From Planctomycetota bacterium (GTDB lineage Bacteria; Planctomycetota; UBA1135), in contig JASFYO010000075.1 of the NCBI GenBank assembly GCA_045047305.1, positions 1 through 31,680 of the forward strand: DNA of 31,680 nt, in the 5' to 3' direction. Shown piece after piece: positions 1-30,288 of this stretch. Below the pieces are notes generated by a model. The model searched no databases. It saw only the letters and a program-made list of their open reading frames with translations, and was not told where the DNA came from. Every line of letters starts with the position of its first letter. The stretch's first letter is position 1. The position numbers and the translations under genes are program-made.

Positions 1-585
1 CGGGTTTGCGCATGCCTGATGTTGGCGGCCGTGCAATACGATGATCGCGTTGCTTTTCTAGGCTATGACCAAGAAGTGCGATGCTATGAACCTCCACGGA
101 AAGGGCTGAGCCATGTGTTGCGCATCGTGCGGGATTTTCTTGCCTTAGAGGCTAGCGCGGGAAAAAGTGACCCCGGTCCAGCCTTGAAGTATGCCGCGAA
201 AAACCTTCCCTCGCACAGCGCGGTGTTTTTGGTGTCGGATTTTCTAGGCGATGGATGGCAGCCAGCGTTGCAGGAATGCGCCAAGCGGCACGAAGTGATT
301 GCGGTACGTTTGCTGGCGCCAGAATTGCGCAAGTTGCCTTCAGGAATGTGGGGACTACGCGATGCGGAGGGGCGCGCGCGAAGGGTTGTGGATGGAAGCG
401 ATCCAAAGGTGCAAGCGCAATACGCGGAACGTGTGGAGCGTTGGGATAGGGAGACCCGGCAAATGTTGCAGCAGGCAGGCGTCGCACTTTTGGATGTACC
501 GATTCCAGCGGTTGCGGATCCGGATGCCGTCGCCCGCCCGATTTTGCGTTTCTTTCAACGTCGCCAAGGCCGGGGGCGGAGTTAA
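1..585 (+). CDS. DUF58 family protein (MoxR-associated, VWA-like), 5' truncated by window edge
   Basis: Frame 1 is open from base 1. It contains the DDRVAF...VFLVSDF...HEVIAVRL pattern typical of the DUF58 C-terminal half and lies directly upstream of VWA genes. Confidence 0.85.
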   Translation, partial: RVCACLMLAAVQYDDRVAFLGYDQEVRCYEPPRKGLSHVLRIVRDFLALEASAGKSDPGPALKYAAKNLPSHSAVFLVSDFLGDGWQPALQECAKRHEVIAVRLLAPELRKLPSGMWGLRDAEGRARRVVDGSDPKVQAQYAERVERWDRETRQMLQQAGVALLDVPIPAVADPDAVARPILRFFQRRQGRGRS

Positions 586-1097
586 TGCAGAAGGCGATTC
601 CGAAACTCCCAAGCGAGGTGCAGGATCTTCCGCTAGACCTGCTGGCATGGGGGGCTTTGTTGCTTGGAGTCTTCCTCGTGCTTCATCTTTATGCGCGTTG
701 GTTGATTGCACGCCCTAATGGCGTTGCAGAGATTCAAAAACCAGAAGCGGAGACGCAGTTGAACTTGCTACAAGAACTGCAGCAGTTGCGCCGCTCTCTT
801 CCTCATTTGTCTGATGCACAAAAGTTGGAAGCACTTGCTCTTTCTGCTTTACTGCGTCACGCATGCGGTCAGCGATGGAGTGCTACCGAGCAAGAGTTAT
901 TGGCTACTTGCAGCGAGGCCTCGCGTGAAGCGCTCGCTCCCTTGTTGGCTTTTACGATTCACATCCTGTTTGCTAACGGTCAAGCCACCCTGAAAGAGTG
1001 GGAAGATGTCTTAGATCAAACCGAGTTTTGGATGGAGAACTTCGCCGATGCCGACGCTAGCGCCGATGCTGGTACGGGAGCCAGTACGGTGCTATGA
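585..1097 (+). CDS. Single-TM protein at the DUF4381-like position of a Bat operon
   Basis: TAATG overlap with the DUF58 gene. One N-terminal hydrophobic helix (LLAWGALLLGVFLVLHLYA) and an LSALLR...SATEQELL pattern. Sits between DUF58 and batA. Confidence 0.65.
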   Translation: MQKAIPKLPSEVQDLPLDLLAWGALLLGVFLVLHLYARWLIARPNGVAEIQKPEAETQLNLLQELQQLRRSLPHLSDAQKLEALALSALLRHACGQRWSATEQELLATCSEASREALAPLLAFTIHILFANGQATLKEWEDVLDQTEFWMENFADADASADAGTGASTVL

Positions 1098-2053
1098 ACT
1101 GGAGTTTGCAAGACCCCGAGCTGCTTTGGTGTGGATGGCTCCTTCCAATAGCGTTCCTCGTGCGGATATGGCGTCGCCCATCGGCGAAGGCCTTTGCGCC
1201 CTTTGGTTTCGTTCCGTTACTTCCACGGAGCCATAAGCAACACACCCGAGCCTTACCCTTGCTGCTGCAAGCGGCAGGGTTTTTGTTGTTGGTGCTCGCT
1301 ATGGCTAGGCCGCAACAACGCGAGCGATTGCCAGTGGCAGAGCAAGGCATTGATTTGCTTCTCTGTATGGATCTGTCTTCCTCTATGGCAGCAACTGGCT
1401 TGGACCCTGAGCAAAAGGAAATCACGCGATTTGATCTCGCGCGACGAGCAGCAAGTAAGTTCATTTCTTCGCGTACCCAGGATCGGATTGGCCTCCTCGG
1501 ATTCGCGCGGGATGCCCGTTTGGTGTGCCCGTTGACTTTGGACCATCGCAGTTTGCAAAGCTTGTTGCAGGATTTGCAGCTCACCCCCGAGGGGCGTGAA
1601 GACGATGCAACTGGAATCGGCACTGCCCTGGCTCGCGCTGCCGTTCTCTTGAAGGATACTGGCCATGTTTCAAAGGTGGTCATTCTTCTCACCGATGGAG
1701 AGGAGACCGTCGCAACCGAGCAAGCGGGGGGCGCAATCAAGCCGCTGGAAGCTGCCGCGTTGTGCCGTGACTGGGGGGTGCGGGTGCACGCCATCGCAGC
1801 CGGTCCCGATGCGGTCGCCACGCGGAATTCACTACAGTCCGTTGCCGCATTGACCGGTGGCAGCGCTTTTATGGCGCGGGATGCGATTGCTTTGGAAGAA
1901 GTCTATGCTGCGATTGATCAGCTGGAGCGCACTCGGTTTGAGCGTATGCCATGGCGTCAGGTCGACCGTTTTCAGCGATTCCTCGGTGTGGGCGTATTCC
2001 TGTGGCTTCTTGGTGCATGGATGCGTCGGCGTTTCTGGGAGGTGCAGACATGA
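1094..2053 (+). CDS. batA: BatA-type membrane VWA domain protein
   Basis: N-terminal TM pair ending in LAMARPQ, intact MIDAS (DLSSS, T of DATGIG, D of LLTDG), DRIGLLGF and CPLTLD motifs, C-terminal TM. ATGA overlap with the upstream gene. Confidence 0.88.
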   Translation: MNWSLQDPELLWCGWLLPIAFLVRIWRRPSAKAFAPFGFVPLLPRSHKQHTRALPLLLQAAGFLLLVLAMARPQQRERLPVAEQGIDLLLCMDLSSSMAATGLDPEQKEITRFDLARRAASKFISSRTQDRIGLLGFARDARLVCPLTLDHRSLQSLLQDLQLTPEGREDDATGIGTALARAAVLLKDTGHVSKVVILLTDGEETVATEQAGGAIKPLEAAALCRDWGVRVHAIAAGPDAVATRNSLQSVAALTGGSAFMARDAIALEEVYAAIDQLERTRFERMPWRQVDRFQRFLGVGVFLWLLGAWMRRRFWEVQT

Positions 2054-2889
2054 AATTCACCTGGCCCACCGCCTTGCTTTTACTCGGTTCTCTCGGCGCA
2101 TTCCTGCAGCCGAAGTGGGGAGTGGAGGAGGACGCCGTCCGCGAACAGGGCATCGATCTCCTCATCTGCCTCGATGTTTCTCGCTCCATGCTAGCTCGCG
2201 ACGTAAGCCCGGATCGTCTGGGGCGGGCCAAGGCGGAAATCGAGGCTTTGCTGCAGCGGCTTGATGCTGACCGAGTCGGGCTCATCCTCATGGCAGGAGA
2301 AGCCCAACGCGCCGCGCCACTCACCAATGATTTTCAAAGCTTTCGCGCGATTTTGGACTTAGCTTCACCCGAGAGTGTGTTTCAAGGCGGCACCAACCTC
2401 GCGTCGGCCTTGCAAAAGGCGCGTGCATTATTCGATGCTGCTCCGAGTACGCAAAAGAATGTACTTCTTATCAGTGATGGAGAAGATCGCTCTGGCTCGG
2501 CGCTGGAGCAGGCAAAGCTATGCAGTAAGGATGGGATTGTGATTTATGCATTGGGGCTTGGCACCGAAGCTGGGAGTAAAATGACTCTTCGTGATGAACA
2601 AGGGGTCGAGTTTTTCTTAACCGATGAAGAGGGAGTGGAAGTCGTATCCAAATTGGACTCATCCAGCCTCGCCCGGATTGCCGAGATGACCGGTGGAACT
2701 TTGCTTTCTCTTTCAGCGCAAGCAGGGGTCTTAGTGCCTTGGTATGAACAAACGCTTTTGCCGCGTGCGCAACAAGCCTTTGCTGCTGATGACCGTCTAC
2801 GCCGTGCGAATCGATTCCAGTTGCCGCTGTTCTTCGGACTCCTCGGAGCATTTTTTGGGCTCGCTGGCTTTGGTCGGAGGCAACGATGA
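2050..2889 (+). CDS. batB: BatB-type VWA domain protein
   Basis: Start reassigned to ATG 2050 (ATGA overlap with batA stop). Motifs CLDVSRSMLARDVSPDRL, GGTNL, ISDGED, LGLGTEAG and VVSKLD; C-terminal TM. Confidence 0.85.
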   Translation: MKFTWPTALLLLGSLGAFLQPKWGVEEDAVREQGIDLLICLDVSRSMLARDVSPDRLGRAKAEIEALLQRLDADRVGLILMAGEAQRAAPLTNDFQSFRAILDLASPESVFQGGTNLASALQKARALFDAAPSTQKNVLLISDGEDRSGSALEQAKLCSKDGIVIYALGLGTEAGSKMTLRDEQGVEFFLTDEEGVEVVSKLDSSSLARIAEMTGGTLLSLSAQAGVLVPWYEQTLLPRAQQAFAADDRLRRANRFQLPLFFGLLGAFFGLAGFGRRQR

Positions 2890-3578
2890 AAACACAATCC
2901 GTTTTCCAGTTACTCGCCGCTTGTGTCTTCATTATTTTTGGATTGTGGCGTATGGATTCCGCTCCGGAGGAACTCAACGCATCGGCCGTCGCCGCTTATG
3001 AACGCGGCGACTTTGTTGCGGCGACCGAACTCTTCCAACAAGCTGTGAGCGCTCTGCCAACGACTCTGTTGCAAAAGAACCTCGCACTTGCAGCTTTCCA
3101 AGCGGATCATTTGAAGCTTGCTTCCACCGCCGCTGCATCCATCGCCAGCGACGACCCTGCGTGGCATGATTTCCTTCTAGGCAACTTGGCTTGGCGGCGT
3201 AGCATGATGGCGGAAACGGAGGCGCATGGACCTGTTCCTCCAGCGGGTTGTTTAGAGCGTGCTATCGCGCAAGCGGAAGCTGCAGGTGATGCCTGGGAAT
3301 CCGCCTTGGAAATGAGAGACTCTTGGCTTCAGGCGAAATGGAATTTAGCTTTGGTGGAAACCCGCATCTCTGCTTTACAGGAAGAGCTTCAATCTACCTT
3401 GAACTCTGGCGATTCAGAAACAGAAAAGTTGCCGTCGCCATCGTCCACTGCGACGCAGCCGATGATGAATGAAACCAAGCGAATTCAAATGATGCAGCAA
3501 CTCCAACGTCTGGATCAGCAAAAAGCTGCGCAACATCCTGCACCTAAACCTAAGCCGAGTGGAGGGTGGGAGTGGTAA
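2886..3578 (+). CDS. BatC-like TPR protein
   Basis: N-terminal signal/TM, TPR-like helices (AYERGDFVAATELFQQA, AKWNLAL), low-complexity linker, and a terminal Trp as in BatC. Follows batB with an ATGA overlap. Confidence 0.7.
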   Translation: MKTQSVFQLLAACVFIIFGLWRMDSAPEELNASAVAAYERGDFVAATELFQQAVSALPTTLLQKNLALAAFQADHLKLASTAAASIASDDPAWHDFLLGNLAWRRSMMAETEAHGPVPPAGCLERAIAQAEAAGDAWESALEMRDSWLQAKWNLALVETRISALQEELQSTLNSGDSETEKLPSPSSTATQPMMNETKRIQMMQQLQRLDQQKAAQHPAPKPKPSGGWEW

Positions 3579-4840
3579 TGTTCGCGCTCGCTGCTTTGTT
3601 GCTGGGATTTACTCAGACGCCACAAGCCTCTCCTGTGCAAATTGAGTTAGAAGTGCGTAGAGCGATCACCGCATTGCCGCTAGAGACGGGCGCCGAGGTG
3701 TACGCAGGAGAAACTTTGCTGCTGACTTTGCGCTTCAACATGGAGAAGGATTTTTTAGAGCAACAGCTGTTACCGCAATGGGGTTATCCATTCGATGTCC
3801 AGGCCGATTTACGCACCCCCTGGCTTGAGAGTGCGGAGGCCTATAAGAAACTTGGAAGCGCACAAGGTGGAAGCACTTCTTTAGTCATCGACCGTGAATC
3901 CGGCTTCGCTTTACGGCTTCCCGATCACGGGGATGGATGTGTTCACTTTCAGCTAGAGCAAGCCATTGAGGTGCTAAGTGGTCCTTTGGAACTTGCCCCA
4001 GCGCAACTCAAGGTAGTTTGGGCAACTGGATTTGAAGAGGACATGGTTCGTGGTCCGGTTGCCATCGACCGGCAAAGTCAGATCTTTACGACGGCCCCTT
4101 TCGAGATAAATGTACTTCCCGTTCCCATGGCTGGGCGGCCGCGAGAGTTTTCAGGCGCTGTCGGCGATTTCCAAATGTCGCTCATGGAGTTGCCTGAACT
4201 TTCCCCACGTCAGCTGCAGTTATCTTTTCTTGGTAGGGGACATCTTTTACCTGACCACCTGCCCAATTTAGATCATCTTCTTGATTTTCCCATTCAGGGG
4301 CAACGTTTGGAAACGGTGGAATCGGGCTTCGTTTTGCACTTGGAAACAGAATCGAAATCAAGCTTTCCGCTGTTGCGGTGGAGCTATTTTCATCCTGGCA
4401 AAAAATCATTCGTCACGCAAAGCGTTGGAGCCGAACCTTTGCCGGCGGACGAAGTTTCTGAGTTGCGTTGGCCGTGGCTAGGTGGAGTTCTATTGCTTTT
4501 ATGCGGTCTATTCTGGCTTCGTGGAAGCAACCGAGGTAAACAAAGGCAAGTTTCCATGATGGCACTAGAGCCTTTCACCAAATCGGAGCTTCCCGCCGAT
4601 TTGGTCGATGATCTCACGCAGTTGCTTTCTTGCAAGCGAGAGCAAATCTATATGGATAGTTTTGAGCAGGAAATCCAAGCGCAAGATTTACCGGCTGACC
4701 TGACTCAAGATTTGCTTTCTGCTGTGCAAGCCATCGTCCTGGCGCGCTATGCGGAGCAAGGCACTGCGCCAGACGACAACAAGTTAGATGCCCTGCGCGA
4801 ACGATTGCAGGCAACGTGCAAGATCGCGAACAAGGTCTAA
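3578..4840 (+). CDS. BatD-like exported/membrane-anchored protein
   Basis: Signal peptide, INVLPVP...FSGAVGDF motif characteristic of BatD, WSYFHP motif, late TM, C-terminal ARYA. ATG 3578 overlaps the upstream TAA. Confidence 0.75.
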   Translation: MFALAALLLGFTQTPQASPVQIELEVRRAITALPLETGAEVYAGETLLLTLRFNMEKDFLEQQLLPQWGYPFDVQADLRTPWLESAEAYKKLGSAQGGSTSLVIDRESGFALRLPDHGDGCVHFQLEQAIEVLSGPLELAPAQLKVVWATGFEEDMVRGPVAIDRQSQIFTTAPFEINVLPVPMAGRPREFSGAVGDFQMSLMELPELSPRQLQLSFLGRGHLLPDHLPNLDHLLDFPIQGQRLETVESGFVLHLETESKSSFPLLRWSYFHPGKKSFVTQSVGAEPLPADEVSELRWPWLGGVLLLLCGLFWLRGSNRGKQRQVSMMALEPFTKSELPADLVDDLTQLLSCKREQIYMDSFEQEIQAQDLPADLTQDLLSAVQAIVLARYAEQGTAPDDNKLDALRERLQATCKIANKV

Positions 4841-16506: not shown

Positions 16507-17435
16507 TACTCGGCCTCCAAGGCTTCCAGGAAGGCATCTTCGAGCGAACGAGCCGCATCTTTGATACCGAGAAGGGGAATACCCGCTCCGCGTGCGAGTT
16601 CAAAAACGGCTTCCGGCTCCACAATGCGATCCGGATGCGACAAAACCAGCTCACCATGAATGCGGCCGACCTCTGCGACTAAGCCTTGATCGGAAGCCAC
16701 TTGTTGGAATTTACCGACGCTATCCAATTCCACACGCACGCGTTTGGCGCCCCTCGCTGCAGCGGTTAAGTCGGCAAGCGAGCCGGTGTGCTTCATGATG
16801 CCTTTATCCAAAACCCAAACCTCGTTGCACAAGCGCTCGACGTCGGGGAGAAGGTGACTCGCGAGAATCAGATGGATGCCATGATCCTTGCTGACCCGTT
16901 CAATTAAGCCCAGCATGCGGACCCGGTTTTGCGGATCGAGGCCGTTGGTCGGTTCATCCAGAAACAAGACATCGGGATCGTGCACTAAGGCAGCGGCCAA
17001 TTTGAATCGTTGGCGCATGCCCACCGAAAAGGTGGAGACATCGCGGTAGCGTTCTTCGCCTAATCCGACAAAGTGCAGGACATCGTGGGCACGCAGCATG
17101 GCGTCTTCAGTGGCAAACCCGCACAGCTCGGCAAGTTGCGCCAGGCCACGCACACCGCTGACGCCACCAATGTAGGCATCGCGTTCTGGCATATAACCAA
17201 TCCGTCGGCGCAACTGGGCTCCGGCAGCCAGGGTGTCTTCACCCAAGACTTTGACACTTCCTCCAGCGGGGCGCACTAAGCCCAAGATGGAGCGCATCAT
17301 GGAGGATTTCCCTGCGCCGTTCGGACCTAAAAGCCCGAGTGCACCGCCTTCAAAAATGGCGTCGACCCCGTGAAGGGCTGTGAAACTTCCGTAGCGGACC
17401 ACCAGGCCCTGCAATTCGAGAACCTTTTCGCTCAT
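16506..17435 (-). CDS. ABC transporter ATP-binding protein
   Basis: Walker A GPNGAGKS, signature FSVGMRQR, Walker B LFLDEPTNGLDP, H-loop ASH, C-terminal SLEDAFL. Confidence 0.95.
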   Translation of the reverse strand: MSEKVLELQGLVVRYGSFTALHGVDAIFEGGALGLLGPNGAGKSSMMRSILGLVRPAGGSVKVLGEDTLAAGAQLRRRIGYMPERDAYIGGVSGVRGLAQLAELCGFATEDAMLRAHDVLHFVGLGEERYRDVSTFSVGMRQRFKLAAALVHDPDVLFLDEPTNGLDPQNRVRMLGLIERVSKDHGIHLILASHLLPDVERLCNEVWVLDKGIMKHTGSLADLTAAARGAKRVRVELDSVGKFQQVASDQGLVAEVGRIHGELVLSHPDRIVEPEAVFELARGAGIPLLGIKDAARSLEDAFLEALEAE

Positions 17436-18436
17436 CCTTGGCGGATCGGGAGAAGAATCCGGCGTGAGGTGCCGGTGGCCAGGGAGTGCAGACGTTGGAA
17501 CATGGTGTAGACGCGTAGTGAGCGAATGACGCGATCGCGTACTCGCTGTACGTCTACCACCCCTTCGGTGAAGACTTTTTCTATGCGCGCGAGGTAAATC
17601 CAGCGACTCCCAGTGATGGGGCCGCGCAAAACTGGGCCATTGGGTACGGTGACGCCAAAATCCACGAAGACTTGGCGTAAAAAGTCTTCATCAAAACGGT
17701 GGTCGGTGCGTTTGATATAGCCGACTCGCCCATCCTGTTTACTGGTGACAGGGTCTTCGCAGTACTTTTTCACGGCTTCCGCCCAAGTGATTTCTTCAGC
17801 GGTGAGTTTGGTCGCAACCTCGTCCAATAGGGCGTAGCGCGCAAGCCGCTCTTCTTCGCCGACTGCGCGGTTGGTTTCCATGTCGAAAAGTGGAATCCGA
17901 ATCCAAGCGACCTTAAGGCGGCCAAAGAACTCGGGCACCGAACGGTTGAAATGGGTGCGGATTTCACGCATGGAAAATTCTTTGGGCTGCTTTGCGATCA
18001 ATCGCGCACGCACCTCGATTTCTAAACTCGCCCGCGCCAGGATGGATTGCGGAAAGCTGCCATCGCCGCCGCGATCGAGATTCCACGCAGAGGCTTCCGC
18101 AAGTAAAGCTTCTTGGCCGATGGCAGGAATCTTCGCCGCATCGAGTAGCAATGCATTGCTGAACCAGCGCACTTGGTTATAGAAGCGCACCGAATCAATG
18201 TAAAAATGCAGGTATTCAGCATTCGACTCTAGGGCCTCTTTGAGTGAGGCGTCGAGCGGATACATGCGCTCCAAAACTTGACCCACCGAATAGGTGGTAT
18301 CGCCTTGCTGCAGTGCCGGCTGGGCGAGCAGGTCTTGGACATCTGCGCTGGTATCAGCGGAGGAAGGGCTGCTCTCAGCGCCTGGATTCTGGGCTGGGCA
18401 GAGTGAGAAAGTGAACAGTAGAAGAATCGACAGCAT
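17432..18436 (-). CDS. Exported SurA/PrsA-like protein with a degenerate parvulin (PpiC) domain
   Basis: Signal peptide from ATG 18436 (MLSILLLFTFSLCPA). EIRTHFN...WAEAVKKYCEDPVTSKQDGRVGYI...GPI matches the parvulin pattern. ATGA overlap with the ABC ATPase. Confidence 0.7.
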   Translation of the reverse strand: MLSILLLFTFSLCPAQNPGAESSPSSADTSADVQDLLAQPALQQGDTTYSVGQVLERMYPLDASLKEALESNAEYLHFYIDSVRFYNQVRWFSNALLLDAAKIPAIGQEALLAEASAWNLDRGGDGSFPQSILARASLEIEVRARLIAKQPKEFSMREIRTHFNRSVPEFFGRLKVAWIRIPLFDMETNRAVGEEERLARYALLDEVATKLTAEEITWAEAVKKYCEDPVTSKQDGRVGYIKRTDHRFDEDFLRQVFVDFGVTVPNGPVLRGPITGSRWIYLARIEKVFTEGVVDVQRVRDRVIRSLRVYTMFQRLHSLATGTSRRILLPIRQG

Positions 18437-18462
18437 GGCAACGGGGAAAGCTGGGTCCCGCC

Positions 18463-18472
18463 ATCGTAACCT
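18463..18472. promoter_or_regulatory. Overlapping divergent -10-like boxes (TAACCT on +, TACGAT on -)
   Basis: TAACCT at 18467-18472 is 8 nt before the kinase ATG. TACGAT (minus strand, 18463-18468) faces the parvulin gene. The intergenic gap is 44 bp. Confidence 0.4.
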
Positions 18473-18480
18473 CAAGCTTG

Positions 18481-19659
18481 ATGCCAACGAAGAGCCGCCC
18501 CCTCGACCTTTGCCTTGAGCGATTTCGCGCGATAAGCCGTGCGCAGCCGCGCGCGTTTTTTGCGCCCGGGCGAGCCAATCTTTTGGGCGCGCACATGGAT
18601 TACAACGGCGGCTCGGTGATGCCGGTGGCTTTGTCTAAGGGCACTTTTGCAGCGGCTGCGTTACGCAACGATGGCCTGCTTCACCTCGAATCGGCCCAGT
18701 TCCCCGGCGAAATCGTGGAGCTGCCGCTCTCCGAGCTAAAGCCCGGCCGCACCAAAGGGTGGTCCGGTTACGTCGAGGGCGGCCTCTGGACAGCCATGGA
18801 ACGATGGGGGATGTTGCCAGGCCTAGATCTGGTTCTGCATGCCGATTTGCCTATGGCCAAAGGGCTGAGTAGTTCCGCCAGTGTGGAGTGCGTTGCGGTG
18901 TTGACGGTGGCGAAATTGCTTGGAATGGCTCCCGATGCCGATGAAATGATTCATCTCGCGCATGCTGCAGAAACCCGATACGTCGGGGTGCGCTGTGGCA
19001 TCTTGGATCAAACCGCCATCTTTTTGGGCGAACCAGATTCGATTTTGGTGTTCGATTGCTTGGAGCTCACCCGCGAACACGTGCCGCTCGACAGCAAGCA
19101 AGCGATGGTTGCGATTATGGATACCGGCGTCGCGCGTGAACTTGCATCCTCAGCGTTTAATCAAAGGGTCGCGGAATGCACCAGCGCCTTGTCGATCTTC
19201 CAGGAACAACTGCCCGGAGTCACTTGCTTGCGCGATGTCTCGGCGGAAGATTATGCAGAGCATGGCGATCGTTTACCTCCAGCGCTGGCACGGCGTGCAC
19301 AGCATGTGATTGCGGAAGTGCAACGCACGGAGGAGGGGTCCGATGCTTTACGCCGTGGTGATATCGCTACCTTTGGCAGTTGTATGACCCGTGCGCATGC
19401 CTCCTTGCGTGACTTATTTGAAGTGTCCACGCCCGAGCTGGATGTCATGGTCGCAGCAGCAGTCGCCGTCGACGGATGTTATGGCGCACGCCTCACCGGG
19501 GCGGGCTTTGGTGGATGCGCCGTAGCGTTAGTGCATCCAGCGGCGCGCGAAGTCTTTGAGGCTAGCGTGACCAAGCGTTATGCAGAGGCCACCGGACGCA
19601 CTACAGAAGTGCAGTGGTTCTCTCCTGCGGGCGGTCCACAGGAATTACTTCTTAGCTGA
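18481..19659 (+). CDS. galK: Galactokinase-family GHMP sugar kinase (substrate uncertain)
   Basis: APGRANLLGAHMDYNGG, PMAKGLSSSA, CGILDQ, SLRDLFEVSTPELD and GARLTGAGFGGC. Two sugar-contacting positions deviate from GalK (see findings). Confidence 0.85.
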   Translation: MPTKSRPLDLCLERFRAISRAQPRAFFAPGRANLLGAHMDYNGGSVMPVALSKGTFAAAALRNDGLLHLESAQFPGEIVELPLSELKPGRTKGWSGYVEGGLWTAMERWGMLPGLDLVLHADLPMAKGLSSSASVECVAVLTVAKLLGMAPDADEMIHLAHAAETRYVGVRCGILDQTAIFLGEPDSILVFDCLELTREHVPLDSKQAMVAIMDTGVARELASSAFNQRVAECTSALSIFQEQLPGVTCLRDVSAEDYAEHGDRLPPALARRAQHVIAEVQRTEEGSDALRRGDIATFGSCMTRAHASLRDLFEVSTPELDVMVAAAVAVDGCYGARLTGAGFGGCAVALVHPAAREVFEASVTKRYAEATGRTTEVQWFSPAGGPQELLLS

Positions 19660-20769
19660 GACTGGTAGCAAAAAAGAGCGTCGCTGGTTTTCAGTGTCTT
19701 GTGGAATCATTGACCACAGGCCGCCATCAGCCTGGACGCCTAATTCAGCGAGCGCGGAAAGCATATGCTGCTCGGCATCTTGCGCTGAAATGTTTTGCTT
19801 GGTGCTCCACATGAGCCAAGTGCGAGTCTCAATCTGTTGCGCCCCTGGTTGTTGGCCTACGCCGGGAGATAGCACGAAGCGCCGTTCGCCTAGATGCTCC
19901 CACCAAAGCCCAGGGATTCGCGAGGCGGAATCCGGTATTTCTCCAACTCCGTAGGACTGCCAAGCGATTTCAACCAAGTCAAAATCTTCGGTTGTGGGCG
20001 CAGGGATTCCCGTGGCAGGTAGGAGGTCGTGGTCGTCGCGGTTTTCTTTCGGCGGTGAAAATACGGAACTCAGGAGTAAAGAACGGTCGTGGATGGAAAC
20101 ATAATCCTCGACTCTCCGCCCACTTTCACTGGTCCAATCCCAGTGCATCGGCATGAGGAATTGAGTGCGTTGTGATGCTTGCCACTGCTCTAAGGCAACA
20201 TGAAACCCAAGCAAGGAGACGCGCGCTGGAAGGTTCTCTGCATTCACTTCGAGCGTGAGCTTCCCGCTAGGAGTGTCCACCGAAAGCTCCCCGTTGTCTT
20301 CTTTCTGCCATCCCCAAGGAAAGCGAAGCGTGTGCCAGCGCATCAAGGTTTCGATTGCCAAGTCGGTTGGATCGTAGGCGATAAACTCTTTGTGCGGCAA
20401 TTTGAGCCAGCTTTGCTCTCGGTTGGTGAGCAAAAAGACATTGGGTAAAGCGCCTTCTGCGCCCATCGAAAAACGCATGCGGTCAGCACCACCAATCCAC
20501 AGTTCACCTTGCTGTGGGATTTCCCGATCGTCGATGAAAAAAGCTAAATCGCCGACCAGGCGGTACTGTTTAGCCGGTGTACGCGGTTCTTGCACCGGCA
20601 TGCCGCGGGCTTTTGCGTAAGCTGCTAAGGGAGACGGCGTAATCACTTCCGTGAGCAAATCCTCTGCCGTAGAAAGTGGTTCTGTTGTCGCTTTGGATCC
20701 GGGTGCGTCGTCGCTACAACTCAGAATGAACCCAGCGATGCCGGCCGTAAGCCAGAAATGAGTTTTCAT
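19645..20769 (-). CDS. Hypothetical lipoprotein
   Basis: MKTHFWLTAGIAGFILSC lipobox from ATG 20769, which overlaps the aminotransferase stop (ATGA). Confidence 0.72.
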   Translation of the reverse strand: MKTHFWLTAGIAGFILSCSDDAPGSKATTEPLSTAEDLLTEVITPSPLAAYAKARGMPVQEPRTPAKQYRLVGDLAFFIDDREIPQQGELWIGGADRMRFSMGAEGALPNVFLLTNREQSWLKLPHKEFIAYDPTDLAIETLMRWHTLRFPWGWQKEDNGELSVDTPSGKLTLEVNAENLPARVSLLGFHVALEQWQASQRTQFLMPMHWDWTSESGRRVEDYVSIHDRSLLLSSVFSPPKENRDDHDLLPATGIPAPTTEDFDLVEIAWQSYGVGEIPDSASRIPGLWWEHLGERRFVLSPGVGQQPGAQQIETRTWLMWSTKQNISAQDAEQHMLSALAELGVQADGGLWSMIPQDTENQRRSFLLPVSAKK

Positions 20770-21938
20770 GCATTTGCCCATCTTAGTAATCTAGAATTCG
20801 CAGCTTCTAGCGTTTCGATTTTTTTCGCATAGCAGAAGCGTACGCGGTGATTGCCATCGGCGGGATCGCGGTAGAAGGAGGACCCTGGGACCGTGGCTAC
20901 GCCGGCGTCGGTGACTAAGCGCATAGCGAAATCGACATCGCTTTCACCGCGGCGCTGGTGATCCCGAATGTCCACCATGGCGTAGTATGCGCCTTCTGGG
21001 ATGTCGCAGGGGAAACCGGCAGCGCGTAGACCTTCGACCATCACCCCCCGACGCGCGCGGTATTCTTCGCGCATTTTTAGGTAGTAATCATCTTCCCATA
21101 GCAACGCTTCAGCGACGGCCTCTTGCAATGGGGCAGGAGCTCCAACAGTGAGGAAGTCGTGCACTTTGCGAATGCCACCAGTCATGTTTGGAGGCGAGAT
21201 AATCCAGCCCACGCGCCAGCCGGTCACGCTGAAGGTTTTGGATGCCCCAGAAATGACAATCGTGCGTTCCGCCATGCCCGGTTCCAAGAGGGGGCAGTGG
21301 TGGTCTCCGGTGTACAAAATCTCTTCATAGATTTCGTCGGTGAAAAGAATCAGATCGCGTTCGATCACGAACTCACACAAAGCCTTCAATTCCGTGCGGC
21401 TGAAAACCCGGCCGGTGGGGTTGTGTGGAGTGTTCAAAACCACGGCCTTTGTTTTCGGGCCGGATGCTTTACGCATCGCGTCGATGTCCAGAGTGAAGCC
21501 GTCACCCATGGGCACAAACAAGGGGACGGCGCCGGCGAGGATTGCGTCCGGGCCGTAGTTCTCATAGAAGGGTTCGGGGACGAGAAATTCATCACCGGGA
21601 TTCAGCACTCCCATCATCGCGGCAATCATGGCCTCGGTGGCTCCGCAGCAAACCGTAACCTGCGCATCGGGATCGATTGTGACTCCGCGGCGCTTTTGCA
21701 TGTACTTTCCAATCGAAGCCCGCAAGCGATTGCTGCCCCAAGTGACAGCGTACTGATTGAGGTCGTCGCGAATCCATTTCACCGCAGCCTCTTTGAGTGC
21801 ATCCGGTGCAGGAAAGTCAGGGAAGCCTTGAGCAAGATTAATTGCATCGTGCTCCCGCGCAATCCGCGTCATTTCACGGATGACGGACTCGGAGAAGCGG
21901 CTGGCTTTTTTAGATTCGCGGAGGTCGGTGGTGCTCAT
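20766..21938 (-). CDS. PLP-dependent aminotransferase class I/II (YbdL/kynurenine aminotransferase-like)
   Basis: AINLAQGFPDF, NQY, GATEA, NTPHNPTG, DEIY, SKTFSVTGWRVG (PLP lysine) and VRFCYAK. Confidence 0.93.
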   Translation of the reverse strand: MSTTDLRESKKASRFSESVIREMTRIAREHDAINLAQGFPDFPAPDALKEAAVKWIRDDLNQYAVTWGSNRLRASIGKYMQKRRGVTIDPDAQVTVCCGATEAMIAAMMGVLNPGDEFLVPEPFYENYGPDAILAGAVPLFVPMGDGFTLDIDAMRKASGPKTKAVVLNTPHNPTGRVFSRTELKALCEFVIERDLILFTDEIYEEILYTGDHHCPLLEPGMAERTIVISGASKTFSVTGWRVGWIISPPNMTGGIRKVHDFLTVGAPAPLQEAVAEALLWEDDYYLKMREEYRARRGVMVEGLRAAGFPCDIPEGAYYAMVDIRDHQRRGESDVDFAMRLVTDAGVATVPGSSFYRDPADGNHRVRFCYAKKIETLEAANSRLLRWANA

Positions 21939-26503: not shown

Positions 26504-26815
26504 AGACAGGAATGATGGGGCGCGGGGGCGCACCCACCATATTAGCCCAAATATTTTATCTGCCAAGCTGCTTTGAAAGGCCTCGCCCTTTGCGATACCG
26601 CTTCTAAGGAGTATCGCGCACCTAATCCAGCAAAGTCCTATCTGCCTTTATGCACGAATGGAAGTGAGTGGTGAGCTTGGAGTTTCCATTTTGTTTCTGA
26701 GGCACCGCAGTGGCCCAACATGAACAATATTTCATTTTGCGGACAGGCACTGGAAAGGATGAAAAACGTATAAAAGAGAATCAGTGGTCAACGGTTGGCC
26801 GCGCGAAGCATTCTC

Positions 26816-27826
26816 ATGAGCCAAACTCAAATAACATCATTCGCTACGCCTGAAGGGGCTGCGACTAGCCCGGTGGCGCAGGACTTCCATCGGCTACAGG
26901 AACACCTGAACCAGCGCATCATTGGTCAGCCGCTTTTAACCGAGGGGCTGTTGCTGGCGATTCTCGCTGATGGGCATCTCTTAGTGGAAGGCGCCCCAGG
27001 CTTGGCTAAAACGAAAGCGATTAAGGAGCTTTCCCTCGCTGTTGAGGGATCGGAACATCGTATTCAATTTACGCCGGACCTATTGCCAGCCGACTTAACC
27101 GGGACAGAAATTTATCATCCGGAAGATGGTAGTTTCCGTTTTCAGCAAGGCCCAGTCTTTCATAACTTCGTGCTTGCCGATGAAATCAATCGTGCCCCAG
27201 CAAAAGTGCAATCGGCCCTATTGGAGGCCATGGCGGAACGACAAGTCACGGTCGGAAGCGAGACCCATCAGCTGCCGAAGATTTTTTTGGTGATGGCAAC
27301 CCAAAACCCGATTGAGCAGGAAGGGACTTATCCTTTGCCCGAAGCTCAGCTCGATCGATTTCTTTTGCATCTGCGCATTGGGCCTCCTGACGCGGCTTCG
27401 GAATTGAAGATTCTGCAACTGGTTCGTGCCGAGGCACAAGAGATGCCGGTGGAGCCATTCCGGCCCATCACGCAGGCTTCGGTCCTTGCTGCTCGCCAGG
27501 AAGCGCTTGGCGTCCATCTATCGCCAGCACTGGAGAATTATTTGGTGCAACTTGTCGTGGCCAGTCGGGAACCTGCGGCTTATGACGCCGATTTGGCGCG
27601 TTGGATTGAGTGGGGTGCCAGCCCTCGTGGAAGCATTGCGCTAGATCGCTGCTCTCGTGCCCGGGCATGGCTACGTGGACGTAGTTTCGTGACTCCGGAA
27701 GATATTCAAGCCGTCGCCCCGGACGTTTTGAATCACCGCGTCTTGCCTAGTTACGAGGCGGAGGCTACAGGTGTTACAGCGTCCAAAATCGTGGAGCGCA
27801 TCCTGCAACTTGTTCCATTGCCTTAA
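26816..27826 (+). CDS. moxR: MoxR family AAA+ ATPase
   Basis: Walker A GAPGLAKT, RIQFTPDLLPADLTG, ADEINRAPAKVQSALLEAM, ATQNPIEQEGTYPLPEAQLDRF and GASPRG. Confidence 0.96.
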   Translation: MSQTQITSFATPEGAATSPVAQDFHRLQEHLNQRIIGQPLLTEGLLLAILADGHLLVEGAPGLAKTKAIKELSLAVEGSEHRIQFTPDLLPADLTGTEIYHPEDGSFRFQQGPVFHNFVLADEINRAPAKVQSALLEAMAERQVTVGSETHQLPKIFLVMATQNPIEQEGTYPLPEAQLDRFLLHLRIGPPDAASELKILQLVRAEAQEMPVEPFRPITQASVLAARQEALGVHLSPALENYLVQLVVASREPAAYDADLARWIEWGASPRGSIALDRCSRARAWLRGRSFVTPEDIQAVAPDVLNHRVLPSYEAEATGVTASKIVERILQLVPLP

Positions 27827-27831
27827 TCGAC

Positions 27832-27836
27832 AGGAG
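27832..27836 (+). promoter_or_regulatory. Shine-Dalgarno site for the DUF58 gene
   Basis: AGGAG 8 nt upstream of GTG 27845. Confidence 0.6.
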
Positions 27837-27844
27837 ATCTTGTT

Positions 27845-28798
27845 GTGTCCAAACCGATAGAGATGGAATCGCGGAACTGGCCTGAAGGGGTTGCGATTAG
27901 CTTGGAGGAGCTCACGCGCCTTCGCAGTGAAGGGGAGCGCTTGCATATGAGGAATTCGGAAAGAGTCGGGACGGTTCTGGCCGGCTCGCACCGAACTCCG
28001 TTCCGTGGGCGTGGCATGGAGTTTGCCGAGGTGCGTGGGTACCAGGCGGGAGATGATCCACGGAGTATCGATTGGAAAGTGACTGCCCGAACGGGGCAAG
28101 TTCACACCAAGCTGTTTCATGAGGAGCGGGAACGCCCGGTACTGTTCTTGCTGGATTTAAGTGGAAGCATGCGCTTTGGTACTCGCAAGTGCTTTAAGTC
28201 CGTGCAGGCAGCGCGGCTCATGGCGCTTTTGGGTTTCGCTGCTTTGGCTAAAGGAGATCGCGTGGGTGGAGTGGTCATTGGCGATGACACCCTTTCCGTT
28301 TTCAGAGCACTTCGTTCGCGCAGGCGTTGGCTTGCCATGCTGGACAAAACGGCTGAACTTTCTGCGCCCACATCCAGTGGGGAATTGTTCCCGGAGCAAG
28401 CAGCGTGTCTGGGAAAGGCTATGAGGCGGATTTTGGCCCTGAGCGTTCCTGGTTGCCAAGTGGTTATCTTTTCCGATTTTTATGACTTGAATCAAGAATT
28501 CGAAACCTCCTTCCGCCTTCTTGCACGCCGTACGGATTTACGTGTTGTTCACTTGTTTGATCCGCTAGAGCACGATGCCCCGCCAAAGGGTAATTATCGA
28601 ATCTCTAATGGAAGAAATCTCGCGGAGATTGATGCTTCCATTGCCAAACTTCGGCAAAGTTGGGGGCAACAGTTGGCGAGTAGAGAGAAGCACTTGGAAG
28701 ACCTATGTCGGTCCCAACAAGCAGCCTATTTCCGTGCTTCCACTGCTGACGATACGTCTGACCTTCTCACCCTAGGACCCGCATCTCTCGTTCCATAA
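27845..28798 (+). CDS. DUF58 family protein
   Basis: GRGMEFAEVRGYQAGDDPRSIDWKVTAR, EERER, LDLSGSMRFG, FSDF and DPLE. GTG start preceded by AGGAG. Confidence 0.93.
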   Translation: MSKPIEMESRNWPEGVAISLEELTRLRSEGERLHMRNSERVGTVLAGSHRTPFRGRGMEFAEVRGYQAGDDPRSIDWKVTARTGQVHTKLFHEERERPVLFLLDLSGSMRFGTRKCFKSVQAARLMALLGFAALAKGDRVGGVVIGDDTLSVFRALRSRRRWLAMLDKTAELSAPTSSGELFPEQAACLGKAMRRILALSVPGCQVVIFSDFYDLNQEFETSFRLLARRTDLRVVHLFDPLEHDAPPKGNYRISNGRNLAEIDASIAKLRQSWGQQLASREKHLEDLCRSQQAAYFRASTADDTSDLLTLGPASLVP

Positions 28799-28801
28799 CC
28801 G

Positions 28802-29284
28802 ATGCAAACCCCAACCGACCCACTCGCTGCATTGCGCGATATTCATTTGCCTGCCCCGGTAGGGTGGTGGCCTTTGGCACCTGCTTGGTGGGTTCTGGGC
28901 GCCATTCTTTTTCTAGCCATTGCTCTTCTGACACGACGAATCCTCGCAAAGAGAAAGGCTCTCTATCATTTTGCCATAGAGGCATTCATGGCCGCTGAGA
29001 ATCAGTATACCGAGAATGGAAACCTGATACAGATGGCGGTCGCCTTGTCTGAAATCTTGCGTCGTGTTGCGCTTGCCCGATACCCTCGCGAAGAGGTCGC
29101 AAGCTTAAGTGGCGAAGATTGGGCGACGTTTTTGGTAAGCCATGGTGGCAAGGATTCTTTTCAGGAAGAATACTTGTCTTTGGAGCTTGCTACTTACATG
29201 CCAGAAAGTGAAGTGGAATGTCGTCTAAATTCCACACGTCTTTTGCACGCAACGAAGTCCTGGATTAAGAGGAACGCAGCATGA
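28802..29284 (+). CDS. DUF4381 family protein
   Basis: DPLAALRDIHLPAPVGWWPLAPAWW N-terminus, one TM, and VASLSGEDWATFL. Confidence 0.9.
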   Translation: MQTPTDPLAALRDIHLPAPVGWWPLAPAWWVLGAILFLAIALLTRRILAKRKALYHFAIEAFMAAENQYTENGNLIQMAVALSEILRRVALARYPREEVASLSGEDWATFLVSHGGKDSFQEEYLSLELATYMPESEVECRLNSTRLLHATKSWIKRNAA

Positions 29285-30288
29285 TCTTCGCCCACCCCTG
29301 GATGTTTGCTTGTGCGCCGCTACCTTTCCTCGTTTATTGGTTAGCGCCTGCACTCCCAAGGCCGCAAGATGGCGCTTTGCGTGTTCCCTTCTTTCAACAT
29401 GCATCTTCTCTTGCTTCCGCGGCCAAGTTAGGAAGTAACAAATGGCTTATTTGGCTATTGAAGGTTGTCACGTGGCTTTCTCTCGTTGCTGCAGCAGCCT
29501 CCCCACAACTTCTTGGCAATCCCATTGCGGTACCCACTGAGGGAAGAGATTTAATGCTCGCGATTGACTTGTCGGGCTCTATGGCGCGGGAAGATTTTTC
29601 AACGAAATCCCAGCGGGTAGACCGGCTTACGGTAGTTCGTAATGTCGCCAAAGACTTTATTGCGGAGCGCAGAGGTGATCGCGTTGGTTTGATTCTGTTC
29701 GGATCCAAAGCCTACCTGCAAACGCCATTAACCACGGATCTGAAGAGCGTTTCTAATATGCTCGATGAGGCTGAGATTGGCTTGGCTGGAGATGAAACAG
29801 CGATTGGCGACGCCGTCGGTATTGCGGTGAAAGAGCTTCGGGACCGCCCAAGTCAGGAGAAGGTCGTGGTCTTTTTGAGTGATGGCGCCAATAACGCTGG
29901 CGTGTTGGATCCGCTGCAGGCCGCAGAGCTTGCGCAAAAGAACGGGATCCGCATCCACACGATTGGAGTCGGTGCAGAGCAAATGAAGGTGAAGGACTTT
30001 TTTGGCACGCGGATTGTGAACCCGGCCCAAGACCTCGATGAAAAAACCTTAGCCGCGATTGCGGAGAAAACGGGTGGTGTTTTCTTCCGAGCAAAAGATC
30101 AGGATGGGCTCAAGAAGATCTATCAAAAGATTGAGGAGCTTGAACCCACCGCCGGAGAGGCTTCCTTTTTGCATCCCCGTCATAGCTTGTTTCAATGGCC
30201 ATTGGGGTTGGCATTAGCTTTGTCAATCATTCTGGTTCTCATGCATGCTCCCCTCAATCTTAAGCTCGTAAGCAGGAAGGTTACCTGA
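29281..30288 (+). CDS. batA: BatA-type membrane VWA domain protein
   Basis: FAHPW start, GRDLMLAIDLSGSM (MIDAS), GDRVGLILFG, QTPLT, TAIGDA, LSDGANNAG and DLDEKTL; C-terminal TM. Confidence 0.92.
   Translation: MIFAHPWMFACAPLPFLVYWLAPALPRPQDGALRVPFFQHASSLASAAKLGSNKWLIWLLKVVTWLSLVAAAASPQLLGNPIAVPTEGRDLMLAIDLSGSMAREDFSTKSQRVDRLTVVRNVAKDFIAERRGDRVGLILFGSKAYLQTPLTTDLKSVSNMLDEAEIGLAGDETAIGDAVGIAVKELRDRPSQEKVVVFLSDGANNAGVLDPLQAAELAQKNGIRIHTIGVGAEQMKVKDFFGTRIVNPAQDLDEKTLAAIAEKTGGVFFRAKDQDGLKKIYQKIEELEPTAGEASFLHPRHSLFQWPLGLALALSIILVLMHAPLNLKLVSRKVT

Follow-up and report, generated by a model that had tools for sequence, protein, structure and literature searches.

A GalK-like kinase with a remodelled sugar pocket in an order of Planctomycetota: a possible uronate 1-kinase

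Which sugar is phosphorylated by a galactokinase homologue in which residues that hold galactose have been replaced? The question is raised by a gene at 18481..19659 on the forward strand of a 31,680-nucleotide stretch of planctomycete DNA (the window, meaning here the whole stretch analysed). Its 392 aa product, P0001, is a GalK-like GHMP sugar 1-kinase bearing the Pfam domains PF10509, PF00288 and PF08544, and the first-pass annotation had seen in it a candidate active kinase for a sugar other than galactose, mislabelled as GalK. That claim stands in part, on the intact motifs, the clade that shares the changed pocket, the galactokinase names in databases and a genomic background that speaks against a Leloir role; a uronic acid is the leading candidate substrate, and by whole-protein score the protein falls outside the galacturonokinase-labelled family.

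The catalytic side of the protein is that of a galactokinase. The GHMP fold and the GalK N-terminal signature domain PF10509 are evident from Pfam, from a predicted model (pLDDT 93) and from the match of this model to the structures of Lactococcus lactis GalK (1PIE; TM 0.92) and human GALK1 (about 0.89), and P0001 shares 33% identity (126/378) with Escherichia coli GalK. It reaches 291 bits against TIGR00131 in a curated HMM search, above the cut-off of 226.65, and falls below the cut-offs of all four PRK galactokinase HMMs (PRK05322, PRK05101, PRK03817 and PRK00555). Residues Arg31, His38, Asp40 and Asp176 align with E. coli Arg28, His35, Asp37 and Asp174, and the same matches are seen against 1PIE and human GALK1. 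Arg31 (18571..18573), presumably the catalytic Arg by its equivalence to E. coli Arg28, is present in 111/111 copies of the clade described below, and His38 and Asp40 are invariant among them. The equivalent of the catalytic Asp, Asp176, is preceded by Leu175, which faces E. coli Met173 (19003..19008). The ATP-binding loop GLSSS (18862..18876) is kept in 110/111 copies, with one gap, and the first, third and last Gly of the GAGFGG loop (19498..19515) are kept in 105/111, with six gaps. The GalK-type catalytic apparatus, described as intact from the outset, is so both in the alignment with E. coli GalK and across the clade of 111, and the enzyme looks active.

The sugar-binding side is different. 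In galactokinase structures, a Glu binds the 6-OH of the sugar and a Tyr binds its 4-OH. Alignment with the E. coli and L. lactis enzymes places Ala37 of P0001 (codon GCG, 18589..18591) opposite Glu34 of the G-E-H-x-D signature and Phe226 (codon TTT, 19156..19158) opposite Tyr223, at the positions first assigned to them. Comparison of the clade with 44 Glu-type kinases reveals two further swaps, of the conserved Thr at position 39 for Leu or Met (Met39 in P0001, 18595..18597) and of Arg for Val230 (19168..19170; Val in 109/111 copies, with two gaps). The comparison with GalK (EC 2.7.1.6) is one of likeness in fold, catalytic Arg, His, two Asp residues and ATP loops, against four clade-fixed differences in the pocket.

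These replacements are neither private to this genome nor errors of sequencing, an explanation ruled out by the homologues, by the genomes of the order and by the variety of codons. Among the 120 best homologues, the Glu site is occupied by Ala in 106 and by Ser in 6, with the site not reached in 8, and Phe is found in 120/120, so that the case in which close relatives all retain Glu and Tyr does not apply; planctomycetes are named in 21 of the 25 titled homologue records. Of 121 genomes sampled from the host's order, 117 matched the kinase and 116 could be read at the motif, and 111 of these 116 carry an Ala, Gly or Ser copy. Within these 111 copies the Glu site holds Ala in 100, Gly in 8 and Ser in 3, the Tyr site holds Phe in 107, and position 39 is hydrophobic in nearly all (Leu 84, Met 21, Val 4, Gln 2); the 44 Glu-type kinases have Thr at position 39 in 86% and Tyr at the Phe226 site in 98%. 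Among the clade copies, each of the four Ala codons and each of the two Phe codons is used. Contigs from three runs cover the whole stretch with no insertion or deletion, the differences looked at being 40 of 173 rows. The Ala, Phe and Val changes are fixed across the order and the pocket has changed under selection; drift is an unlikely explanation, since both residues are lost in about 107 of 111 copies that are only 40% identical.

Five incomplete genomes of the order show Glu-type copies only, and in two of these (L246 and L247), which are possible orthologues, Glu and Tyr go together with Val. Outside the order the Ala/Phe state is rare. A small residue occupies the Glu site in 7 of 51 kinase copies from a 201-genome sample of the phylum, and in 31 of the 150 best 50%-cluster representatives, including all of those ranked 1-9, with Ala, Phe and Val found together in only 10. 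The own genome, 87.7% complete, has P0001 as the single GalK-like gene found, and 19 genomes of the order have a Glu-type kinase besides the Ala-type copy, many of these from divergent subfamilies. Some Glu-type GalK-like kinases named from Gemmatimonadota (P0260-P0281) bear an N-terminal NTP-transferase fusion, and their close unfused relatives are second kinase copies in the host's order. In family f9, four genomes (L275-L278) encode yet another divergent GHMP kinase, whose motif reads E-H-G-D-Y and whose final glycine loop is altered. A double mutant of E. coli GalK, M173L-Y371H, is reported to have relaxed C4 selectivity and to accept gluco-configured sugars (PMC3898844); Leu at the equivalent of Met173 is found in only 35/111 clade copies.

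A comparable pocket occurs in a prokaryotic family labelled galacturonokinase, reached from L173 and L174, planctomycete kinases that lie outside the order; among their 120 homologues, which are prokaryotic or unnamed, 14 carry the JGI label galacturonokinase or galactokinase/galacturonokinase. This family resembles P0001 in having Ala at the Glu site (120/120), a hydrophobic residue (Val or Ile) after the His, Val230 (118/120) and tolerance of Phe (Tyr/Phe 68/52), and P0001 matches it in the Ala and in the Val of the N-x-R-V-x-E-C motif. It differs in carrying P-[YL]-R-x-C-P and D-H-Q where P0001 has P-G-R-x-N-L and D-Y-N, and its combined signature, P-[YL]-R-x-C-P...G-A-H-x-D-H, is absent from P0001. 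By profile, P0001 scores 427 bits as canonical GalK against 273 as galacturonokinase-like; held-out members of the labelled family score 575-604 on the latter, and two held-out representatives outside the clade score 270 and 232, so that P0001 is no better placed than these. A FastTree of 107 rows, with three trait columns dropped, separates the P0001 clade, on a long branch, from the labelled family. An IQ-TREE of 36 of these rows leaves their join unresolved, and the tree that forces both groups together lies 6.5 log units above a quick free search (p-AU 0.65; long branch), a value by which a single clade would be neither rejected nor shown. Ala and Phe do co-occur in one clade, that of the host's order, and the whole-protein score puts P0001 outside the labelled family. 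Lacking Glu (Ala37) and Tyr (Phe226) of the GalK signature as well as the labelled-family signature and profile, P0001 is filed by sequence in neither group.

The label itself deserves caution. Across 60 metagenome loci of the labelled family, the most frequent neighbours are ATP sulfurylase (19), a GDP-mannose 3,5-epimerase-like protein (15, one tested for closest match), nucleotidyltransferase (9) and sulfotransferase (8), which points to NDP-sugar supply and not specifically to galacturonate; the JGI label carries less weight as evidence for a uronate substrate. The substrate of this large family (L298-L357; L173 and L174; P0124-P0243) may differ from galacturonate.

The genome surrounding the kinase is poor in Leloir genes and holds several genes of UDP-sugar metabolism. 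Counts for the order come from 121 related genomes and are not independent. The own genome contains GalE, GlmU, a Ugd-like gene, a UXS-like gene and a UDP-GlcA 4-epimerase-like gene, and tblastn searches of it with E. coli GalT, GalM, UxaA, UxaC, UxuA, UxuB and ExuT gave no match. The first report of neither galT nor galE in the window is confirmed among the 30 window proteins scanned, with the amendment that galE is present elsewhere in the genome; of the Leloir partners, GalT and GalM are the ones not found in this 87.7% complete assembly. Unlike the usual setting of GalK, there is no gal operon, and GalT-family matches are absent from the host family (0/33 genomes, or 0/32 without the own genome). 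They occur in 32/121 genomes of the order and are strong in only 6, and four of five strong galT loci examined adjoin another kinase type. The rare full galT genes (L279-L282; G069, G034, G053 and G020) adjoin a GHMP kinase of plant arabinokinase-like type, marked by the motif P-G-R-L-D-V-x-G-G, making a possible arabinose salvage pair.

Neither GalU above cut-off nor the uronate isomerase UxaC was found in the order (each 0/121), and a PF01704 pyrophosphorylase, of the eukaryote type, is present in 116/121 genomes, a UXS-like gene in 115/121 and a UDP-GlcA 4-epimerase-like gene in 105/121 (E 1e-70). The PF01704 protein was considered as a plant-type USP, a candidate set aside on finding it far closer to UDP-GlcNAc pyrophosphorylases (E 1e-59) than to USP (1e-9). 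Since a bona fide GlmU is encoded in the own genome, the UAP-like protein need not serve GlcNAc, and with GlmU present and GalU absent it is inferred to supply UDP-glucose, possibly with broad specificity, and is a likely replacement for GalU in the order. Arabidopsis UAGPase2 uses Glc-1-P (PMC6329318). The PF01704 genes (L096:79-1167, with a complete copy at L292:4955-6352) adjoin fab genes in the host genus, and six genomes, all of a single genus, have a UXS-like gene no more than about 3 kb away from PF01704. UXS and epimerase genes stay near each other in many genomes of the order; in the own genome, a UXS-like gene, glmS, the UDP-GlcA 4-epimerase-like gene and a third epimerase follow accBC (L286:6362-11090; G000:C21). 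The own 4-epimerase-like protein carries the Ser-Ser and Thr positions described for carboxylate binding by UDP-GlcA 4-epimerase (PMC7984243). Adjacent AmgK-like and MurU-like genes (L103:470-2205; G000:C10), both weak and far under cut-off, may form a second anomeric salvage pair.

The locus offers little guidance to the substrate. The kinase gene is flanked by one divergent and one convergent gene. The divergent gene (17432..18487, reverse strand) encodes a parvulin/SurA-like exported protein with Rotamase look-alikes at 0.95 and no Pfam or NCBIfam match, and is kept at 30/30 loci of the family and 29/38 other loci of the order, a conserved synteny with no sign of a functional link to the kinase. 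The convergent 378-aa lipoprotein-like ORF (window 19645-20781, reverse strand), likewise lacking a Pfam or NCBIfam match, is kept in 22 loci of the family. Across 65 loci, in which annotation extended to the genes known from the window plus a few more, the kinase has no recurrent sugar-gene neighbour, and operon context was set aside as a guide, the sole constant neighbour being the parvulin-like gene. Fusion partners were set aside too, as 0/39 longer homologues are of the Ala/Phe type, itself weak evidence. The picture is that of a vertically inherited housekeeping gene. Elsewhere in the window, 19-4840 and 26795-30288 hold two MoxR/DUF58/VWA (Bat-like) gene sets.

The reading that leads is that the substrate is not galactose but a uronic acid (D-glucuronate, D-galacturonate or both), phosphorylated at C1 for UDP-sugar salvage; it is offered tentatively, its likelihood lying somewhat short of even. 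To our knowledge, plant GalAK is the sole natural precedent for Ala at the Glu site. Yang et al. reportedly found in 2009 that the Arabidopsis enzyme needs Ala41 and gains glucuronate activity by Y250F, the same pair of residues as in P0001, and it is because of these two precedents that uronate is placed first. Loss of the Glu would remove both the contact with the 6-OH and a charge clash with a C6 carboxylate, and loss of the Tyr hydroxyl would make an axial 4-OH less of a requirement and let gluco-configured sugars fit. The kinase would then use ATP to phosphorylate, at C1, a sugar that lacks a 6-OH, and the sugar 1-phosphate would be uridylylated by the order's PF01704 pyrophosphorylase, which would in addition take the place of the missing GalU, with the UDP-sugar product entering a pool of UDP-GlcA, UDP-GalA or UDP-Xyl for envelope glycans.

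Consistent with a uronate substrate are the fixation of Ala in the order, the Ala/Val pair held in common with the labelled family, the non-rejection of a tree that joins the two groups, the missing Leloir partner and the core status of putative uronate NDP-sugar genes (UXS-like, UDP-GlcA 4-epimerase-like, the own Ugd-like gene and PF01704). The 19 genomes with both kinase types keep the Ala-type copy although a Glu-type kinase is also present. Against it, the sugar motifs of the clade have gained no newly fixed basic residue relative to the 44 Glu-type kinases, and have lost one Arg; the whole-protein score favours GalK; the use of uronate 1-phosphate by a UAP-like PF01704 enzyme is putative; the search of the own genome with E. 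coli ExuT found no hexuronate transporter; and E43A in human GALK1 reportedly leaves the galactose kinetics little altered.

Glucuronokinases (GlcAK) form a separate GHMP lineage. The Arabidopsis (PMC2823444) and zebrafish (PMC3938481) enzymes are GHMP kinases that form GlcA 1-phosphate for UDP-GlcA salvage, the same reaction as proposed here, and GlcAK genes are reported in a few bacteria; P0001 carries the GalK signature domain PF10509. The plant galacturonic acid kinase GalAK is At3g10700 (PMC8636097). A bacterial precedent is the ScGalK/ScGPUT pair of Solitalea canadensis (PMC11267548), in which a GalK yields a non-galactose sugar 1-phosphate that is directly uridylylated, as proposed here; ScGalK is described as a promiscuous galactokinase, unlike a dedicated kinase, and no mention of the residues in its pocket was located in the text consulted. 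By comparison with these systems, P0001 would work like a GHMP salvage 1-kinase.

D-Xylose has no C6 and an equatorial 4-OH. Such a neutral sugar, lacking a 6-OH, could instead be the substrate, with D-xylose as the first candidate and L-arabinose, D-fucose or quinovose as others, feeding UDP-xylose or a similar product in salvage; this reading is unlikely on balance. It fits the pocket as well as a uronate does, each of the four fixed changes taking away a polar group. The UXS-like gene is the most constant partner and lies near PF01704 in six genomes, and in genus g7 the kinase is kept by two genomes whose best UDP-GlcA epimerase-like match is only 30-32%. This uncoupling is a weak argument, as the other three of five epimerase-'missing' genomes, when retested, gave 38-41% matches; epimerase loss as a case against galacturonate was accordingly dropped, holding in only 2/5 genomes. 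A promiscuous bacterial GalK is reported to make xylose 1-phosphate (PMC11267548), but the search for precedents turned up no natural kinase that has these residues and is dedicated to such a sugar, and the only Ala precedent known to us is a uronate kinase.

The enzyme might still be a galactokinase, perhaps slow or broad, feeding a GalT-free (Isselbacher-type) route through the PF01704 pyrophosphorylase and GalE, a reading that seems rather doubtful. It would explain the invariance of His38 and Asp40, the passing of the TIGR00131 cut-off, the presence of GalE and the finding of no second GalK-like gene in the own genome. Small residues recur in scattered relatives, as in the 31 of 150 representatives, and Timson and Reece reportedly found in 2003 that E43A in human GALK1 changes galactose kinetics little. 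A GalT-free route has been described for plant USP (PMC6329318). It is harder to reconcile with a double loss maintained over such divergent sequences, and with the 19 genomes in which Glu-type copies coexist, though many of the latter are of divergent subfamilies. Some other envelope sugar (a sulfated, methylated or L-configured hexose, or a heptose) or a non-catalytic role is improbable: the Ala/Val family elsewhere adjoins GDP-mannose 3,5-epimerase-like, sulfotransferase and ATP sulfurylase genes and the kinase's own neighbourhood gives no substrate hint, but nothing in the locus indicates such sugars and the catalytic residues are invariant.

Returning to sugars without a 6-OH, a bolder proposal, possible though on the unlikely side, is that a GalK-derived kinase dedicated to gluco-configured sugars of this kind (glucuronate or xylose) operates across the order with a UAP-type pyrophosphorylase replacing both GalU and GalT, a plant-like UDP-sugar salvage as core metabolism, with the clade perhaps sister, as a GalK-like group, to the galacturonokinase family. 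A search of open-access papers brought up none that treats this clade or the GalAK and GALK1 mutants, and a wider cluster search (the Atlas) returned only generic galactokinase clusters; databases give the protein the name galactokinase. In 2013, the xylose 1-kinase of plants was described as still to be identified (PMC3659416), and current work on UDP-xylose relies on a promiscuous GalK (PMC11267548). A bacterial 1-kinase dedicated to a uronate or to xylose would help in the production of UDP-GlcA, UDP-GalA or UDP-Xyl. Should the enzyme act on a sugar other than galactose, the 'galactokinase' entries of over a hundred genomes, and the galactose use inferred from them, would be wrong, and the clade would exemplify a natural retuning of the GalK pocket.
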